64,000 nucleotides of DNA from Bacteroidales bacterium. Its GTDB lineage: Bacteria; Bacteroidota; Bacteroidia; Bacteroidales; VadinHA17. Below, one piece after another: positions 53,137 through 59,106 of the stretch. The notes under the pieces were generated by a model. It was given only the letters and a program-made list of their open reading frames with translations. It was not told the DNA's origin and ran no database searches. A program made the translations under genes and the position numbers. The stretch covers positions 33,097 through 97,096 of the forward strand of contig JAOZPG010000010.1 of the NCBI GenBank assembly GCA_029932855.1. Direction: 5' to 3'. How positions within the stretch are numbered: the stretch's first letter is position 1; each line of letters starts with the position of its first letter.

Positions 53137-53275
53137 GCAATAAACAAAAAGGTCTTTGCCTAACAGCAAATACCTGTTTTTCTTTCCCATTCCCCTTACA
53201 AAAGAAATCTTTTGACGGTGCCTGTGAAACAAAAATCCCGCCACTTAGCAGTGACGGGACTTTATTGTTTATTGC
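53137..53275. repeat. Degenerate ~140-bp palindrome (inverted duplication of the tRNA 3' flank)
   Basis: Outer arms match 16/18 (GCAATAAACAA...GTC). Central hairpin CAAAAGA-AA-TCTTTTG at 53199-53214 lies on the symmetry axis. Confidence 0.7.
53231..53263 (-). terminator. Intrinsic terminator of tRNA-Ser
   Basis: Minus strand GTCCCGTCACT-GCTA-AGTGGCGGGAT-TTTT. Confidence 0.8.
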
Positions 53276-53362
53276 GGAGAGAGAGGGATTCGAACCCTCG
53301 GTACGCACAAGGCGCACAACGGTTTTCGAGACCGCCCCGTTCGACCACTCCGGCATCTCTCC
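53275..53362 (-). tRNA. tRNA-Ser (anticodon CGA), CCA not encoded
   Basis: GGAGAGA acceptor stem, D arm, anticodon arm GCGGT-CT-CGA-AA-ACCGT, long variable arm, GTTCGAATC T loop, G discriminator, 88 nt. Confidence 0.97.
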
Positions 53363-54883: not shown

Positions 54884-55189
54884 ATGGGAAAAGGGGATAA
54901 AAAGACCAAACGGGGTAAAATTGTTGCAGGATCTTATGGGGTAAGAAGACCAAAAAAGAAAAAAACAACTTATAAACCCACAGCTAAAGCTGTTATAAAA
55001 AAGACTGAAACTGTTGCAAAGCCGGTTAAGGATACAACTGAAAAGAAAGTTGCTCCGAAAAAAGCAGCTCCAAAGAAGGCAGTTCCTGCCGTCAAACAGG
55101 AAAGCAAAGCTAAGAAGCCTGCTGCAAAAGCTGCAGAGAAGAAGGCCACACCTGCCGTCAAAGAGAAAAAGAAATCAGCTAAAGACTAA
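54884..55189 (+). CDS. thx: 30S ribosomal protein bTHX with Lys/Ala/Pro-rich extension
   Basis: N-terminal MGKGDKKTKRGKI..GSYG.RRP THX signature, plus about 75 aa of KKAAPKK-type tail. Confidence 0.9.
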   Translation: MGKGDKKTKRGKIVAGSYGVRRPKKKKTTYKPTAKAVIKKTETVAKPVKDTTEKKVAPKKAAPKKAVPAVKQESKAKKPAAKAAEKKATPAVKEKKKSAKD

Positions 55190-56547
55190 TGTTTTCCATG
55201 GGACTCTTCATTGGCCTGTTGTTGATAATAACAGCAGGCTTTTTCGTGAGTGCAGTCCTTCTTTTCTCGATAGAGTCGTTTAGGGAAAATGAAGCTCGTG
55301 CAGGATGGATATTACTGTCGGCCGTCTTTATCCTGTTGGCTCTTTATATGCTTGTTTTCTTTTCTGGCAATATCCCGGCATTATGGATATTTGCTATATC
55401 TCCATGGTTAATTATGATACTTTTATTCTGGCCTGCCGGGAGTAACAGGGAGGGGGATAAGGGACCTGATCCCCGGGGACAGATTGATGAAAGGGATATA
55501 ATGTTTTCAAGACGCCTGTTAAAGGAAGGAAGCAGGAGGTACAGGAAATATTATTCGCAAAATCCTGAAAAGAAAGAGTCAGATGACAGGTCAAGGGCTA
55601 AGCCTGGCCTCTTGTCACCTCGTTCCCAGTATTACCATCCCCTGCAGTTTGCTGCTGCAAATGCAAGCTTCACTGCCGTTGAAGCATTGGTTCCGGCAAT
55701 AGATAAACCGGCCACAGCAGAAAAGGTAAAGATCGAAGCTGCTGCCCTGAGCACTTTCCTGAAGGGATGGGCAAGGAAGCTTGGTGCACTTGATCTTGGC
55801 ATCACCTTATTAAAGACAGAGCATCTTTATAGTTACCGGGGGAGGGAACATAATTATGGTAAAAAGGTGGATAAGAGGCATAAGTATGCTATTGCCTTTA
55901 CGGTAGAGATGGATAAGGAAATGATTGACAGGGCTCCTCTTGGACCGGCAGTAATGGAGTCGGCCGGAAGATATATGCATGCAGGTTCTGTTGCCGTACA
56001 GATAGCTGCTTTTATCAGGGAGCTTGGCTATGATGCAACGGCTCATATTGACGGGCATTATGAACTGGTTGCACCCCTGGTAGCCAGGGATGCCGGGCTG
56101 GGTGAGATAGGAAGGATGGGGCTGCTTATAACAGCTAAAGAAGGTCCCAGGGTTAGGATTGGTGTTGTAACAACGTCAATGGAGATGAAAGAGGATACTG
56201 TAAAGAGAGACCTCTCTGTAACGGAATTCTGTGATATTTGTAAGAAATGTGCTAATAATTGTCCCGCAGCAGCAATACCCTCCGGTGAGCAGAAAATGAT
56301 AAACGGGATTAAGAGGTGGCAGATAAACCAGGAGAAATGTTATGACTACTGGTGTATTGCAGGGACTGATTGTGGAAGATGCATAGCTGTTTGCCCTTAT
56401 TCTCATCCCGATAATTACCTGCACAGGCTGGTAAGGCTGGGAGTAAGAAGATCTGCTCTTTTCAGAAAGATTGCAGTTCCCCTTGATGACTTCTTTTATG
56501 CTAAGAAGCCCATTAGCCGCAAGCCTCTTAAATGGATGAACCCATAA
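55189..56547 (+). CDS. Reductive dehalogenase-like cobalamin/2x[4Fe-4S] protein with N-terminal TM helices
   Basis: Three hydrophobic N-terminal segments, no Tat motif. Motifs DERD..F.R, A..LGA..LGI, I..LGY.A, A..AGLGE.GR.G.LIT...GPRVR...V.T, CxxCxxCxxxCP and C-x10-CxxCxxxCPY. Confidence 0.85.
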   Translation: MFSMGLFIGLLLIITAGFFVSAVLLFSIESFRENEARAGWILLSAVFILLALYMLVFFSGNIPALWIFAISPWLIMILLFWPAGSNREGDKGPDPRGQIDERDIMFSRRLLKEGSRRYRKYYSQNPEKKESDDRSRAKPGLLSPRSQYYHPLQFAAANASFTAVEALVPAIDKPATAEKVKIEAAALSTFLKGWARKLGALDLGITLLKTEHLYSYRGREHNYGKKVDKRHKYAIAFTVEMDKEMIDRAPLGPAVMESAGRYMHAGSVAVQIAAFIRELGYDATAHIDGHYELVAPLVARDAGLGEIGRMGLLITAKEGPRVRIGVVTTSMEMKEDTVKRDLSVTEFCDICKKCANNCPAAAIPSGEQKMINGIKRWQINQEKCYDYWCIAGTDCGRCIAVCPYSHPDNYLHRLVRLGVRRSALFRKIAVPLDDFFYAKKPISRKPLKWMNP

Positions 56548-56611: not shown

Positions 56612-58306
56612 ATGACAGTAAGGAATAGCGATATATGGTTAAAAGCAGCGGTGGCCGGAAGCCTGTGGGCATCCGTGGAGATTGTTGTTGGCAGCTTCCT
56701 GCATAACCTGAGGGTGCCCTTTGCCGGTACCATACTGGCAGTGATGGGGATAAGCCTGATGATTGCTTTTCAGTATAAATGGAATGACAAGGGACTTATC
56801 TGGCGGGCGGGGCTGATTACAGCCATCATGAAGTCACTCTCACCCAGTGCCGTAATCATTGGTCCTATGCTTGGCATATTAACCGAGGCCGTATTGCTGG
56901 ATTTTGCAATTCGCTTATTCGGACGAAATATGCTGGGCTTTTTAACAGGTTCGATAGCAGCAGTGCTTAGTGCACTGGTACATAAAGTGGCCACAATCAT
57001 TATCCTCTATGGATTCAATATTGTCAATATACTGGAAAATGTATATCAATATGCACGAAAGCAGCTAAGAGTGGAAGGTCCCGAACCCCTGATGCTTGTG
57101 CTTTATCTTATTTTATTATACATCTTATTTGGGATACTTGCAACGCTGACAGGGATGGCTTCGGGCAGAAGGATAGGAAAGTATGTAAATGAGGAAGACT
57201 ACAGCAGGGAGATCATAAATGATGAATTCAGCCTGCAGGGAGATGAAAAATACTCTATCTTCTTGCTGATTTTTCACCTGCTGGTGTTGGTTACCGGCTT
57301 ATACCTGGTAAACAGCCTTAACATATTGCTCTCTTCCGTCATAATCCTGCCCTATATTGTATTCGTCTTTATAAAATATAAAAGATCTTTGCGGAGGCTG
57401 GCAAAACCATTGTTCTGGTTCCAGCTGGTATTGATCCTTCTCTTTGCCGTATTGTTCTGGAATGGTTATTCAAAGGGATCATTGCTGGATATTGAAGGTT
57501 ATATCATTGGTGCCAGGATGATTATCAGGGCCCTGCTGGTGGTACTGGTCTTCTCTGCCGTCAGTGTTGAGCTGAGAAACCCTCTTGTAAAGGCAGTGCT
57601 TTATAAAAGAGGATTCTCAAAGCTTTATACTTCCCTGGGACTTGCATTCTCGGTATTGCCTGCTGCCATGAACCGTATTGCCAGGCCTGCGGGATTGATC
57701 CTGAGTCCTATACGATCACTCTCGGAGATAGTTCAGTATTCCGGCAAGCTTTATAATTCATTCAGGGAAAGGATGGAGGTGATGAATCCTGTTTTTATTA
57801 TTGCCGGGAACCACAGGGAAGGAAAGACAAGCTTCCTGAAAGAGACAATTGACATACTAAGGAAGGCCGGGACCAGGGTTGGTGGAATAATGACCGAGGG
57901 AATTGACAGGGAGGGGGAGAGGTTTGGCTTCATGCTGGTGGATGTTTCAAGTGATGAGAAGGTATTGCTTTGCCACAAGGAAAAGACTGAAGAATGGAAG
58001 AAGACAGGCAGGTTTTATTTTAATCCGGAGGGACTTGCTTTCGGAAAGAAGATACTAAAGCAGTCAGGCAGCAATAACATTATGGTGATTGATGAGATTG
58101 GACCCCTTGAGCTAAAAGACGGAGGATGGAGCAGGCGGCTGGAAGAGTTGATATCTGCCTACGAACATCCAATGATATGGGTAGTGAGAAGAAATCTTAC
58201 AGAGAAGATAATTAAGAAGTTCTCATTAAAGAATGTTATCATTATGGATATTGCACGTTACAAGCCCCCGGAACTGGCAGATCAGCTACTCAAGCTTGAT
58301 AGCTGA
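56612..58306 (+). CDS. Polytopic membrane protein (ECF S/T-like) fused to THEP1/DUF2478-like NTPase
   Basis: About ten TM segments in aa 1-390. C-terminal G....GKTS, VGG..T, R.GF.L.D, G...F...G, IDEIGPLE...GW. Confidence 0.7.
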   Translation: MTVRNSDIWLKAAVAGSLWASVEIVVGSFLHNLRVPFAGTILAVMGISLMIAFQYKWNDKGLIWRAGLITAIMKSLSPSAVIIGPMLGILTEAVLLDFAIRLFGRNMLGFLTGSIAAVLSALVHKVATIIILYGFNIVNILENVYQYARKQLRVEGPEPLMLVLYLILLYILFGILATLTGMASGRRIGKYVNEEDYSREIINDEFSLQGDEKYSIFLLIFHLLVLVTGLYLVNSLNILLSSVIILPYIVFVFIKYKRSLRRLAKPLFWFQLVLILLFAVLFWNGYSKGSLLDIEGYIIGARMIIRALLVVLVFSAVSVELRNPLVKAVLYKRGFSKLYTSLGLAFSVLPAAMNRIARPAGLILSPIRSLSEIVQYSGKLYNSFRERMEVMNPVFIIAGNHREGKTSFLKETIDILRKAGTRVGGIMTEGIDREGERFGFMLVDVSSDEKVLLCHKEKTEEWKKTGRFYFNPEGLAFGKKILKQSGSNNIMVIDEIGPLELKDGGWSRRLEELISAYEHPMIWVVRRNLTEKIIKKFSLKNVIIMDIARYKPPELADQLLKLDS

Positions 58307-58312
58307 ACATTT

Positions 58313-58987
58313 TTAATACTCCCATATTCCTTCCCTGCTTGGTTTTTCCAGGCTTTTTTCAAGCATTTTTATGAACCCTCTCCTGGATATCTCTTTTGCT
58401 CCCATCCTTTTTAGATGATCGGTAGGCACCTGTGCATCAATAAAGTCAAATTCCCATTCTTTAAGCAATTGCACAAGCCGGTGCAATGCTGCTTTCGATG
58501 CATCACTCTCTGTCTGAAACATAGACTCGCCAAAAAAAGCTGCACCCAGTGAAACCCCGTAAAGGCCCCCCACAAGCCTGCCATTATAAAAAGATTCAAC
58601 AGAATGAGCATATCCCTGCCTGTGCAGTTCAATATAAGCCTGCTTCATTTTATTTGTTATCCATGTTCCTTCCTGTCCTTTCCTTTCCAGGCCCGAACAT
58701 GCATCTATCACCTCTTCAAAAGAGCTGTCTGTCCGGTATTCAAACTTGCCCGACTTAATTGTGCGGGCCAGGCTTTTTGATACTTTCATCTCTTCCGGAA
58801 GAAGTATGAGCCTGGGATCGGGAGACCACCATAATATTGGTGAGCTCTCGTTAAACCATGGGAAGATTCCTTTTGAGTATGCATCTAGCAGAGTGCTTGT
58901 TGAGAGGTCTCCTCCAATTGCCAGAAGGCCATCTTTATTGGCAGTAGATGGATCCGGGAAGATGCTTTTATTATTTTCGCGATTCAT
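58313..58987 (-). CDS. aat: Leucyl/phenylalanyl-tRNA-protein transferase
   Basis: GLLA.GGDL, AY..GIFPW, WWSPDPR, TWI, AHSVE, GGLYGV, F.GESMF, ASK, D.Q..T.HL. Start at ATG 58987. Confidence 0.96.
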   Translation of the reverse strand: MNRENNKSIFPDPSTANKDGLLAIGGDLSTSTLLDAYSKGIFPWFNESSPILWWSPDPRLILLPEEMKVSKSLARTIKSGKFEYRTDSSFEEVIDACSGLERKGQEGTWITNKMKQAYIELHRQGYAHSVESFYNGRLVGGLYGVSLGAAFFGESMFQTESDASKAALHRLVQLLKEWEFDFIDAQVPTDHLKRMGAKEISRRGFIKMLEKSLEKPSREGIWEY

Positions 58988-59106
58988 TGGGAATAACTTG
59001 GACAAAGTCTCAATTTACAAAGAAATACCGGTATTGTTTACCCTCATTCTTCATTTATTATTATTTCGGGATTTCTTTGTACATTCACAAAAAATAATTG
59101 AGAAAT

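Follow-up and report, generated by a model that had tools for sequence, protein, structure and literature searches.

ECF transporters are built from an S component, which is a small integral membrane protein with a six-helix fold, an EcfT or CbiQ subunit made up of membrane helices and cytoplasmic coupling helices, and two ABC ATPases (EcfA/EcfA′, CbiO); the coupling helices of EcfT carry conserved Ala-Arg-Gly/Ser motifs, and we know of no role for the S-component fold beyond substrate capture and translocation. THEP1 (NTPase_1) proteins, such as those of Aquifex (1ye8) and human (2i3b), are small and soluble. MobB, which serves MobA as a GTP-binding adaptor when molybdopterin guanine dinucleotide is made, is likewise a P-loop NTPase found beside or fused to MobA and is not, to our knowledge, membrane-tethered. 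ModABC, WtpABC, and TupABC, which supply molybdate or tungstate, belong to the type I ABC importers and use a periplasmic binding protein. Free molybdenum cofactor (Moco) is chemically labile. According to one review, the finished cofactor cannot be taken up and has to be synthesized in each cell that needs it, C. elegans being the sole known exception (PMC9026282); section 2.1 of that review gives uptake as known only in this animal, for which protein-bound Moco is the form proposed (PMC9026282; PMC7849362). Our literature searches found no description of bacterial Moco uptake, nothing relevant on ECF transporters with molybdopterin or Moco or on MobA without Moco biosynthesis in Bacteroidetes, and nothing relevant on DUF2478.

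The window (the whole stretch of DNA analyzed, 64,000 nucleotides) contains an ORF that puts S-like, T-like, and NTPase parts into one polypeptide. The first-pass annotation had called such a fusion apparently undescribed, and literature searches on THEP1 together with ECF transporters likewise gave no description of it. The features are as follows.

56612..58306, + strand: the whole ORF, 564 aa plus stop, one chain comprising the S-like, T-like, and NTPase domains
56612..57181, + strand: ECF S-component-like helical membrane domain (aa 1-190), with 7 helices in the model
56666..56728, + strand: intramembrane motif W19-x3-E23-x3-G27-x3-H31-N32-x3-P36-x2-G39 (aa 19-39), invariant in the alignments of 62 and 74 members
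56831..56845, + strand: K74-S-x-S77-P78 motif in the helix 3-4 region (aa 74-78), conserved in 62 and 74 members
57182..57256, + strand: acidic, low-confidence linker from the S-like to the T-like domain (aa 191-215), pLDDT 51-62 in both models
57257..57781, + strand: EcfT/CbiQ-like scaffold domain (aa 216-390), with VIA matches starting from model aa 204
57782..58303, + strand: THEP1-type (Pfam NTPase_1, PF03266) P-loop NTPase (aa 391-564)
57806..57829, + strand: Walker A, G399-N-H-R-E-G404-K405-T406, with G404 invariant and K405 at least 90% conserved
58079..58102, + strand: Walker B region, I-M-V-I-D494-E495-I-G497, with D494, E495, G497, and E500 invariant
55189..56547, + strand: membrane-anchored Rdh-like Fe-S protein, context only, upstream and ending 64 nt before the target ORF

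The ORF starts with ATG, and the annotated start is plausible because homologue alignments begin at residue 4-8. The motifs quoted in the first-pass annotation are present in the 564-aa translation: W19..VE23...G27..LH31....P36F.G39, G67...A71..K74, and L344AF..LP350 in the membrane part, and Walker A G399NHREGKT406 and D494EIGPLE500 in the NTPase; their residues are mostly invariant or at least 90% conserved among 62 family members. Among 7,999 scored candidates, 825 are homologues at E ≤1e-3, and those at E ≤1e-30 form 343 representative clusters in which full-length fusions of 555-625 aa predominate; with such numbers, the fusion is far beyond chance.

Sequence and fold both place the C-terminal domain among the THEP1-type NTPases, with Walker A and B intact. 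PF03266 matches aa 395-549 with 83 bits (E 2.9e-23), above its gathering cut-off of 23.9, and matches 61 of the 74 family members; the family profile also matches PDB entries 2i3b (E 1e-15) and 1ye8 (8.4e-15). A Foldseek search with the full-length model returned 1ye8 (TM 0.77, rmsd 3.1) and 2i3b (TM 0.68) as the sole matches at E ≤1e-3. The score against NF010248 (PRK13695), 80 bits, does not reach the equivalog cut-off of 156. The translation bears out a P-loop NTPase with GKT and DEIG.LE, and the LSGGQ signature of ABC proteins does not occur in the 564-aa sequence; where ECF transporters have two ABC-type ATPase subunits, this NTPase_1 domain is the only NTPase domain, one per chain. Unlike known THEP1 proteins, it is fused to a membrane module and, in relatives, to MobA. 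It also differs from MobB by sequence, with no match between PF03205 (MobB) and the target at E ≤0.01, although PF03205 appears at E ≤0.1 in 21 of the 74 members (best, 1.4e-4).

The membrane part is recognizable through its predicted fold. AlphaFold2 gave models of the full-length protein (pLDDT 87.5, pTM 0.83) and of aa 1-390 (pLDDT 90.7, pTM 0.87). In a VIA-align structure search, all against 48,161 chains, the top match of the S-like domain is 5edl_A (Z 13.1, 173 aligned, rmsd 6.6), with further matches to BioY (4dve, Z 9.3) and FolT (8.7), and to PanT, ThiT, RibU, NikM, and CbiM too. ECF S components make up 14 of the top 15 VIA rows (Z 13.1 to 7.1), over model aa 1-200, which assigns the S-component fold to aa 1-190 within this set of chains. 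For aa 204-390, the best matches are EcfT 5d3m_D (Z 8.1; 122 aligned, model 204-333) and CbiQ 5x41_Q (Z 7.0; 175 aligned, model 204-390), values in the Z 7-8 range that VIA flags as reachable by common helical arrangements.

Sequence comparisons did not recover either membrane domain. Pfam searches with the membrane halves at E ≤10 gave no membrane family. The aa 1-190 part has no Pfam match and no sequence-level link to an S-component family; PF02361 (CbiQ) matches neither the protein nor its halves even at that threshold, so the T-like domain, which at about 175 aa is short, is not an EcfT/CbiQ family member by sequence. PF02361, like any other membrane family, is absent from the best 25 of 80 families matched by the 74 members, and the family profile searched against PDB sequences matched the NTPase part alone. 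Canonical EcfT/CbiQ was found in none of six carrier genomes, and a six-frame CbiQ search of the window's own genome returned nothing. The S-T-NTPase architecture read from the sequence in the first-pass annotation therefore stands at the level of fold (AlphaFold2, VIA, and, for the NTPase, Foldseek) and finds no Pfam or PDB sequence match for its membrane domains. In the structure comparison that it had called for, domain by domain against S and EcfT, VIA agreed for the S-like domain and put EcfT and CbiQ first for the T-like one, there within the flagged Z range. A Foldseek search of the PDB with the model of aa 1-390 returned uninformative rows of the MFS type (TM about 0.16), none at E ≤1e-3. 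On balance, the models support a three-part fusion of S-like, EcfT/CbiQ-like, and THEP1-type NTPase domains.

Conservation picks out particular residues in both membrane domains, and extends to a distant subfamily whose homology to the main family is shown by hhalign (99.7%, E 5.4e-27). The S-like domain has an invariant polar set within the membrane (W19, E23, H31/N32, K74, and S77), and in the distant subfamily the aa 19-39 motif likewise keeps its W, E, G, H, and P without exception, as the aa 74-78 motif does K74 and the S-P pair; we regard the aa 19-39 motif as a candidate ligand site. In the T-like domain, R306-A307, E320-L-R-N-P324, and L344AF..LP350 are conserved. R306-A307 is nearly invariant, and an Arg aligns in the distant subfamily; any equivalence to the EcfT motifs would be tentative. 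As leads only, the nearest named clusters in the ESM atlas carry PF09605 for the S-like domain (score 0.88) and CbiQ for the T-like domain (0.84 and 0.82).

Gene neighborhoods of the main family (86 loci) point to molybdenum-cofactor metabolism. A MobA-like gene lies directly upstream of the family member at 38 loci; these neighbors match MobA models at E 1e-24 to 1e-40 and CobY at 1e-5 to 1e-7 (CobY being listed in four of eight), and score best against the bifunctional MobA/MobB models NF011056 and NF011059. A molybdopterin oxidoreductase is encoded within 7 kb at 11 of the 86 loci, often together with Fer4_11, NrfD, and Sulf_transp; DUF364 is directly upstream at seven, a NifX/ORP-like gene is present at four, and TonB-dependent receptors adjoin the family member at 10. 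The NTPase is not seen at 36 of the 86 loci, including eight membrane-only ones whose flanks extend to as much as 7 kb. QueA is upstream at 10-11 of the loci, but is limited to one gene order, QueA-NTPase-MobA-membrane, for which reason we rejected a queuosine link.

The distant subfamily (32 loci in 32 genomes) has operons containing the membrane protein, NTPase, MobA, FdhD, and a YdeP-type molybdoenzyme, the order membrane-NTPase-MobA-FdhD-DUF7009-YdeP among them, and 26 of the 32 loci have a Moco-related neighbor: MobA at 20, FdhD at 14, and an FdhF/YdeP-family enzyme at 10, with XDH subunits and MOSC also among the neighbors. The YdeP-family neighbor scores 917 bits against TIGR01701, above the cut-off. 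Here, the NTPase is fused to MobA at 13 loci, free at 13, and fused to the membrane protein at others, so that over both sets (38/86 and 20/32 loci, with 13 NTPase-MobA fusions) it keeps the kind of operon and fusion partnership with MobA that is typical of MobB. The conserved neighbors of the family are Moco genes and not corrinoid genes, although no Moco gene is adjacent in the window itself, where the neighbors are the Rdh-like gene and aat.

Moco gene content across genomes adds a second line of evidence. In a class sample of 401 genomes, MoaC is present in 3 of the 33 that carry the family vs 167 of the 368 others (odds ratio 0.12, p 2.6e-5), and MoeA_N occurs only in the same three carriers, leaving 30 of the 33 in which neither MoaC nor MoeA was detected. 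Related genomes do not count as independent cases (one family, f17, contributes 12 of the 33 carriers), and the absences are drawn from MAGs or draft genomes that are 91-100% complete, in which one assembly gap can remove several Moco genes because these are clustered. All eight of the MoaC-less carriers tested encode at least one strong molybdoenzyme gene, whereas among 10 MoaC-less non-carriers none has an XDH-type MoCoBD_1 and none has a strong PF00384 match. The window's own genome (96.1% complete) has no MoaA C-terminal domain, MoaC, MoeA, or MoaE detectable by HMM, and tblastn with proteins of two related genomes found no MoeA, MoaA, or MoaC; it keeps MobA (143 bits) and a single PhsA/PsrA-like molybdoenzyme operon. 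We treat MoaE (PF02391) as non-diagnostic, since a single genome of 12 gave a match and some with clear MoaA, MoaC, and MoeA gave none. The MoCF_biosynth matches in MoaC-less genomes lie in ORFs of 418-454 aa (576 and 607 aa in G095 and G222), which probably encode CinA-like proteins rather than MogA. The Moco riboswitch RF01055 was found in none of five genomes. Four main-family carriers (G386, G401, G402, and G403) do have MoaA, MoaC, and MoeA, and salvage is therefore not obligatory there.

We propose that the protein is a single-chain ECF-like transporter of the Moco pathway, whose likeliest role would be import of pre-formed Moco that is handed to MobA; we consider the case for this to be about evenly poised. 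This functional reading draws on the fold, on the genes nearby, and on which genes the genomes have or lack; transport and Moco binding are both putative. Counting against it are the lability of free Moco, the absence of Moco genes next to the ORF in the window, the loci at which no NTPase is seen, and the five genomes without a Moco riboswitch match. The substrate, taken up from the environment, would be Mo-molybdopterin or a pterin closely similar to it. The S-like domain may bind it at the outer face and carry it across the membrane as ECF S components do, and the NTPase may dock on the T-like domain and act as a MobB-like adaptor or switch that passes the labile cofactor straight to MobA. 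MobA would then turn it into the guanine dinucleotide form required by PhsA/PsrA- and YdeP-type enzymes. This conversion might in addition hold the substrate in the cell by metabolic trapping, and so account for membrane-only forms with MobA but without an NTPase close by. In the genome that the window comes from, the client of the importer would be the single PhsA/PsrA-like molybdoenzyme. A complex prediction for the full-length protein with that genome's MobA gave no answer (score 0.00; mark, 0.32) and weighs neither for nor against the proposal.

The proposed high-affinity capture of a scarce cofactor would be the same kind of role that ECF transporters have, and the pre-formed cofactor would come from outside as in C. 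elegans, although that is an animal. We also suggest, slightly more tentatively and at a little short of even chances, that many anaerobic Bacteroidota-type bacteria are Moco auxotrophs that keep MobA, FdhD, and molybdoenzymes and obtain Moco through a transporter class not recognized before, in which an ECF-like S-T module works with a THEP1-type NTPase that delivers the cofactor to MobA. Whether bacteria salvage Moco, and by which route, can now be put to a direct test on a named candidate gene. If the proposal is correct, the family would be the first Moco importer from bacteria and would give the THEP1/NTPase_1 family its first cellular role, and possibly DUF2478 and DUF7009 a function as well; the ECF S/T membrane architecture would be workable without ABC ATPases, Moco would join the cofactors exchanged in anaerobic communities as a 'public good' like B12, and the protein could be a tool for Moco delivery into cells.

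The foremost alternative, though unlikely, is that the protein imports molybdate or tungstate (possibly thiomolybdate), as an ECF-like counterpart of ModABC, WtpABC, and TupABC that feeds de novo Moco synthesis. It shares with those systems a Moco-supply neighborhood and the DUF364 neighbor, which is reported to adjoin molybdate/tungstate uptake genes (PMC2954201, section 3.3; bioRxiv 10.1101/2024.03.05.583561). The protein has neither a periplasmic ModA-type part nor an ABC ATPase domain, and ModA itself (TIGR01256) scores above cut-off in none of 12 carriers vs 8 of 14 control genomes, a contrast in favor of this alternative. Metal-ion ECF S components exist, with CbiM and NikM among the VIA matches here, and a molybdate/tungstate role fits the four carriers with a full pathway equally well. 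However, with MoaC and MoeA_N undetected, 30 of the 33 carriers could not convert imported molybdate to Moco, and most carriers lack detectable molybdate-using enzymes even though MobA, FdhD, and molybdoenzymes adjoin the gene. Moreover, the conserved partner is MobA, which acts at the last step, and not MoeA or MogA, which insert the metal, and an invariant intramembrane E23 would be odd in an oxyanion site. Were the substrate molybdate or tungstate after all, the family would represent a new Mo/W importer class even then.

Somewhat less probable still, we think, is that the protein does not transport at all and is a platform or chaperone that keeps MobA and a MobB-like NTPase at the membrane for the late steps of Moco maturation or for delivery of Moco into molybdoenzymes. 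Fusion of the NTPase either to MobA or to the membrane protein, reminiscent of known MobA/MobB fusions, is consistent with this, as is the membrane association of some partner enzymes (PhsA/PsrA-like, with NrfD). Yet partners of the YdeP, XDH, and MOSC types are soluble and cytoplasmic, the fold is one tied so far to substrate capture and translocation, and TonB-dependent receptors adjoin the gene at 10 loci; a platform would also leave unexplained where the 30 carriers without detectable MoaC or MoeA get their Moco.

It is improbable that another species of the pathway, namely cPMP, metal-free molybdopterin, MGD, or a guanine nucleotide, is imported in place of Mo-molybdopterin. The same Moco gene context would apply, and cPMP is the most stable intermediate of the pathway, but cPMP and metal-free molybdopterin would still require MoeA, found in only three of the 33 carriers, whereas with imported MGD there would be no need for the conserved MobA, and import of GTP has no rationale.

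Import or handling of a corrinoid for the adjacent Rdh-like enzyme, as the first-pass annotation had inferred, has the same-strand gene 64 nt upstream and the existence of ECF-type corrinoid/cobalt S components (CbiM being among the VIA matches) in its favor but is largely refuted by context and very improbable, since the Rdh-like neighbor recurs at 1 of the 86 loci and at none of the five distant-subfamily loci with a membrane gene that were searched for it (L008, L012, L013, L017, and L022), there is no cobalamin riboswitch in the window or in 12 related loci, and the MobA-like neighbors match CobY only at the weak values given above, where at all. The neighborhood check it had suggested, for btu, cob, and rdh genes and B12 riboswitches, instead turned up recurrent Moco genes: cob or btu clusters are not among the recurrent neighbors at the 86 loci or at the 32 distant-subfamily loci, so neither riboswitch nor btu/cob context is conserved, Rfam searches of the window and 12 fused loci returned tRNAs only, and the adjacent TonB-dependent receptors score 71-124 bits against a BtuB model with a cut-off of 599.7. 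The Rdh-like gene itself scores 143.8 bits against TIGR02486, below the cut-off of 160.35, and the single other locus at which the pair is retained, L033, is the closest relative. In the window, a terminator-like hairpin (58337-58353) lies right behind the stop codon of the target ORF.

The target ORF follows an Rdh-like gene on the forward strand and faces aat:

55189..56547, forward strand: Rdh-like gene
56612..58306, forward strand: target ORF, ATG start, 564 aa, beginning 64 nt after the end of the Rdh-like gene
58313..59005, reverse strand: aat, convergent with the target

The motifs quoted in the first-pass annotation (W19..VE23...G27..LH31....P36F.G39, G67...A71..K74, L344AF..LP350, GKT406 and D494EIGPLE500) are all present in the translation, which, as had been noted there, contains no LSGGQ. 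Among 7,999 scored candidates, 825 proteins match the target at E ≤ 1e-3, and a library of 50%-identity representatives gave 3,078 matches at E ≤ 1e-3 and 343 at E ≤ 1e-30. Nearly all of the 120 listed homologues are 557-625 aa long, with 95-100% of the target query covered; source labels are 'nucleoside-triphosphatase (THEP1)', 'DUF2478 domain-containing protein' or 'hypothetical', and the named sources are Bacteroidales, Prolixibacteraceae or Bacteroidota MAGs and one Methylomirabilis MAG. Residues W19, E23, G27, H31, P36, A71, P78, P85, I89, P350, G404, D494, E495, G497 and E500 are invariant in 62 aligned members.

Only the C-terminus of the target is recognisable by sequence: aa 395-549 match Pfam NTPase_1 (THEP1; 83 bits, E 2.9e-23) with an intact P-loop, and matches to DUF2478 and to the NCBIfam NTPase PRK13695 (80 bits; cut-off 156) fall under their cut-offs. 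No Pfam model matched aa 1-390 even at E ≤ 10, a Pfam scan of 74 individual members gave no membrane family among the 25 families shown, and the only PDB chains matched by the family profile were of the THEP1 type (2i3b at 1e-15; 1ye8 at 8.4e-15). AlphaFold2 with family alignments reached pLDDT 87.5 and pTM 0.83 for the full-length target and 90.7 and 0.87 for aa 1-390, and predicted the following order:

aa 2-190: seven helices
aa 191-215: acidic low-confidence linker
aa 216-389: helical region
after the aa 216-389 helices: alpha/beta domain

Foldseek returned only noise for the aa 1-390 model and, for the full-length model, only THEP1 structures at E ≤ 1e-3 (1ye8, TM 0.77; 2i3b, TM 0.68), with no ABC ATPase or MobB at that threshold. 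We also aligned the model to 48,161 representative chains with VIA-align. ECF S components fill 14 of the 15 top rows for aa 1-200, led by 5edl_A (Z 13.1, 173 aligned, rmsd 6.6) and followed at Z 9.3-7.1 by BioY, FolT, two S chains of whole ECF complexes, PanT, ThiT, RibU, NikM and CbiM. For aa 204-390 the best matches are EcfT of a folate ECF complex (5d3m_D; Z 8.1, 122 aligned) and CbiQ (5x41_Q; Z 7.0, 175 aligned over 204-390), after which come unrelated helical bundles at Z ≤ 6.4. Because Z below about 8-13 can be generic in helical proteins, we take the model-based assignment of aa 1-200 as an S component to be firm, and that of aa 204-390 as an EcfT/CbiQ-like T component to be probable. 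Language-model look-alikes, used as leads only, are CbiQ-bearing clusters for aa 205-390 (0.84, 0.82) and PF09605, which we take to be an ECF S-component family, for aa 1-200 (0.88). The S-T-NTPase fusion proposed at first pass thus stands at the level of fold (VIA-align, Foldseek), but not as CbiQ or ABC family membership by sequence. The membrane part would work like an ECF transporter, although the target fails two defining features of that class, ABC ATPases and CbiQ sequence membership; its NTPase is a bona fide member of THEP1/NTPase_1, a family for which we know of no cellular role, and a literature search found no link between THEP1 and ECF transporters.

We compiled 86 loci with a main-family member: five from genome contigs, one from the class sample and 80 from metagenomes, the last being the best 80 of at least 592 matches and many of them short. 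As a simple rule we took the longest ORFs as genes and clustered them by blastp; cluster representatives were annotated. The sole strongly recurrent neighbour is a MobA-like NTP transferase of ~200 aa, encoded immediately upstream in 38 of the 86 loci (37 by tblastn), one copy lying on the opposite strand and one being a fragment. Eight MobA-like proteins from different loci, each sharing its locus with a member, match MobA models at E 1e-24 to 1e-40 and 83-140 bits, under the equivalog cut-offs of 152-164; CobY is listed for four of the eight, at 1e-5 to 1e-7 only. Molybdopterin oxidoreductases (PF00384 with PF01568) lie within 7 kb of a member in 11 loci, often immediately downstream with Fer4_11, NrfD and Sulf_transp. 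DUF364/DUF4213 is immediately upstream in seven loci, a NifX/ORP-like Nitro_FeMo-Co protein occurs in four, and TonB-dependent receptors adjoin the member in ten, scoring 71-124 bits on BtuB models (cut-off 599.7). The NTPase is present in 50 loci, fused in about 34 and otherwise a separate gene adjoining the membrane gene or placed upstream as NTPase-MobA-membrane; none was seen in 36, eight of which have the membrane gene only, with flanks of up to 7 kb.

Two clades have gene orders of their own. QueA is found in 10-11 loci, always in a single order; in one clade with split genes (loci L001-L004, L035, L037, L048 and L054) this is QueA-NTPase-MobA-membrane protein, with a His kinase on the other strand between NTPase and MobA in some loci and a DsrE2-DsrC-DUF1641-Pyr_redox_2 block next on the opposite strand. 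In a fused-form clade (L059, L061, L074, L076 and L080) the member belongs to a conserved block of FUR, ferritin, AhpC, OsmC, (NifX/ORP-like), the target homologue and a transglutaminase-like gene, a setting of oxidative stress and metal homeostasis.

When 401 genomes of the class were searched with the target protein, the full-length fused form appeared only in the window's own genome and in genome G386, and the weak matches were 330-360-aa membrane proteins with 160-aa NTPases encoded next after them. The membrane proteins form a distant subfamily, shown by hhalign to share homology with the main family (99.7%, E 5.4e-27), seven aligned members keeping its W, E, GG, H, P, K and S-P invariant. 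A profile of the subfamily finds the family in 33 genomes at E ≤ 1e-14, including 12 of the 13 genomes of one taxonomic family (f17); these are the carriers below, from which a weak partial match in G020 was left out. ORFs in about 17 kb around 32 members were clustered and annotated.

Genes at the 32 distant-subfamily loci, in their recurrent order (gene; loci; basis)
Membrane protein; 32; family profile
THEP1 NTPase, separate gene; 13; Pfam NTPase_1
THEP1 NTPase fused to MobA N-terminus; 13; profile E 1e-27 to 1e-56, and Pfam NTPase_1 plus NTP_transf_3
THEP1 NTPase fused to membrane protein; 2; ORF length and domains
MobA; 20; NTP_transf_3 and MobA models
FdhD; 14; NF001943, 321 bits, above cut-off
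DUF7009; 7; Pfam
FdhF/YdeP-family bis-MGD oxidoreductase; 10; TIGR01701, 917 bits, above cut-off 582

Other neighbours are a MOSC protein (three loci) and xanthine-dehydrogenase-type subunits (three and two loci). A neighbour related to the molybdenum cofactor (Moco) is present in 26 of the 32 loci, and none was found in the roughly 17 kb fetched at each of L116, L118, L120, L123, L141 and L144; the distant subfamily tells the same Moco-neighbour story as the main family, more clearly. The DUF7009 protein (123 aa) lies between FdhD and the YdeP-family molybdoenzyme in L127, L135, L138, L142, L143, L115 and L124, and may be one more accessory protein, for Moco handling or for a specific enzyme. 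In L120, L115 and L122, from three genomes of family f39, an IscS-NifU-Fe-S_biosyn (IscA-like) cluster immediately adjoins the membrane gene.

The early Moco pathway was not found in most carriers by six-frame HMM searches of these draft genomes. MoaC (PF01967) is present in 170 of the 401 genomes (one of them, G180, flagged unpublished and only a single background positive): three of 33 carriers (G173, G357 and G386) versus 167 of 368 others (odds ratio 0.12; Fisher p 2.6e-5, overstated since related genomes are not independent). MoeA_N occurs in exactly the same three carriers and was not found in the remaining 30. Each of the eight MoaC-less carriers examined encodes one or more strong molybdoenzyme genes (PF00384 at 75-154 bits, MoCoBD_1 at 280 bits or more, or MOSC at 85 bits or more). 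Seven of these genomes carry the distant subfamily, and in five of the seven such a gene is found no more than about 3 kb from the membrane gene. As a control, ten MoaC-less non-carriers (99-100% complete) were scored for MoCoBD_1 and PF00384; they gave no MoCoBD_1 and only two marginal 26-bit PF00384 matches, in ORFs of roughly 1,050 aa. ORFs of ~1,040-1,090 aa with weak PF00384 (21-32 bits) are found in both carriers and non-carriers (G216, G073, G222, G386, G402, G003 and G010); they probably encode a cofactor-less molybdopterin-like domain protein, and our guess is a resemblance to ActB of alternative complex III.

For the window's own genome (44 contigs; 96.1% complete) no HMM match was obtained to MoaC, the MoaA C-terminal domain, MoeA_N or MoaE; tblastn with MoeA, MoaA, MoaC and MoaB/MOSC of two related genomes found one weak radical-SAM-type match only, and flanking housekeeping genes from those genomes were matched. 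It has a MobA (NF001457, 143 bits; cut-off 164) and, on another contig, a PhsA/PsrA-like operon with a 750-aa Mo-bisMGD subunit (NF012032, 475 bits; cut-off 694), Fer4_11, NrfD, two Sulf_transp and two rhodaneses. MoaA, MoaC and MoeA are all present in four further main-family carriers (G386, G401, G402 and G403), which counts against a simple auxotrophy story. ModA scored above cut-off in none of 12 carriers versus eight of 14 control genomes, and canonical CbiQ/EcfT was found in none of six carriers.

We consider it highly probable that the family is a Moco-pathway membrane module, not a corrinoid system. Genomes that keep MobA, FdhD and molybdoenzymes with no detectable MoaC or MoeA would have to obtain the pterin-metal unit from outside, and the S-T module is the candidate importer because it is the sole membrane protein conserved in these operons. 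Import of molybdate or tungstate instead is unlikely: DUF364 neighbours (in excerpts of PMC2954201 and bioRxiv 10.1101/2024.03.05.583561, DUF364 is a neighbour of molybdate/tungstate uptake genes), carriers without ModA and some carriers with full Moco pathways speak for it, but it would bring no benefit to the 30 of 33 carriers in which neither MoaC nor MoeA was detected. That the NTPase is fused in some loci to the membrane protein and in others to MobA suggests a ternary assembly of membrane module, NTPase and MobA, in which the NTPase, occupying MobB's place, may be a MobB-like adaptor or switch and the labile cofactor would pass from transporter to MobA, never free. MobA conversion could also trap the substrate metabolically, as in trapping-driven vitamin transporters, which may explain membrane-only forms with MobA and no nearby NTPase. 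Somewhat less likely again than molybdate import is a membrane platform that transports nothing and serves the late steps of Moco maturation; it would match the same MobA/MobB-like logic, but leaves the Moco source unexplained, and the partner enzymes are mostly soluble. For an importer, the species that fits is Mo-MPT, since cPMP or metal-free MPT would need MoeA and MGD would make MobA redundant; import of another Moco-pathway intermediate we rate as improbable.

The reading of the family as a Moco importer delivering Mo-MPT to MobA is, in our judgement, evenly poised, and the prospect that this putative ECF-like transporter brings a new capability is substantial. A literature search found no bacterial Moco importer, ECF-type or other, and no report of MobA-only Bacteroidota. 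An excerpt of a review (PMC9026282) gives C. elegans as the sole organism known for Moco uptake, and a single sentence in an excerpt of a preprint speculates that cobalamin or molybdopterin could be taken up with the help of some outer-membrane T11SS proteins (bioRxiv 10.1101/2024.09.26.615229).

Corrinoid import serving the adjacent Rdh-like enzyme, the role first suggested for the target, is very improbable: tblastn with the window neighbours places an Rdh-like gene near a main-family member at one of the 86 loci, and Rfam, searched for a B12 riboswitch, gave tRNAs only in 12 related loci and a single tRNA (53275-53362, reverse strand, 57.2 bits) in the 64-kb window. The one locus, L033, is the closest relative (61-67% identity) and keeps aat as well. 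The Rdh-like protein is membrane-anchored, with N-terminal TM helices and two 4Fe-4S motifs, and its TIGR02486 score of 143.8 bits falls slightly short of the 160.35 cut-off, with no more than 31 bits on QueG. Besides lying next to a family member in the window, where it is convergent, and in L033, aat divergently adjoins a distant-subfamily member in genome G117 (L022); these adjacencies may be coincidence. Upstream of the Rdh-like gene is ribosomal protein Thx (54884-55189, forward strand), with a 27-aa domain (TIGR04560, 52 bits) and a Lys/Ala/Pro-rich C-terminal extension of ~75 aa; its TAA stop shares one base with the Rdh-like ATG (TAATG), an overlap that points to an odd pair of genes transcribed together and coupled in translation.
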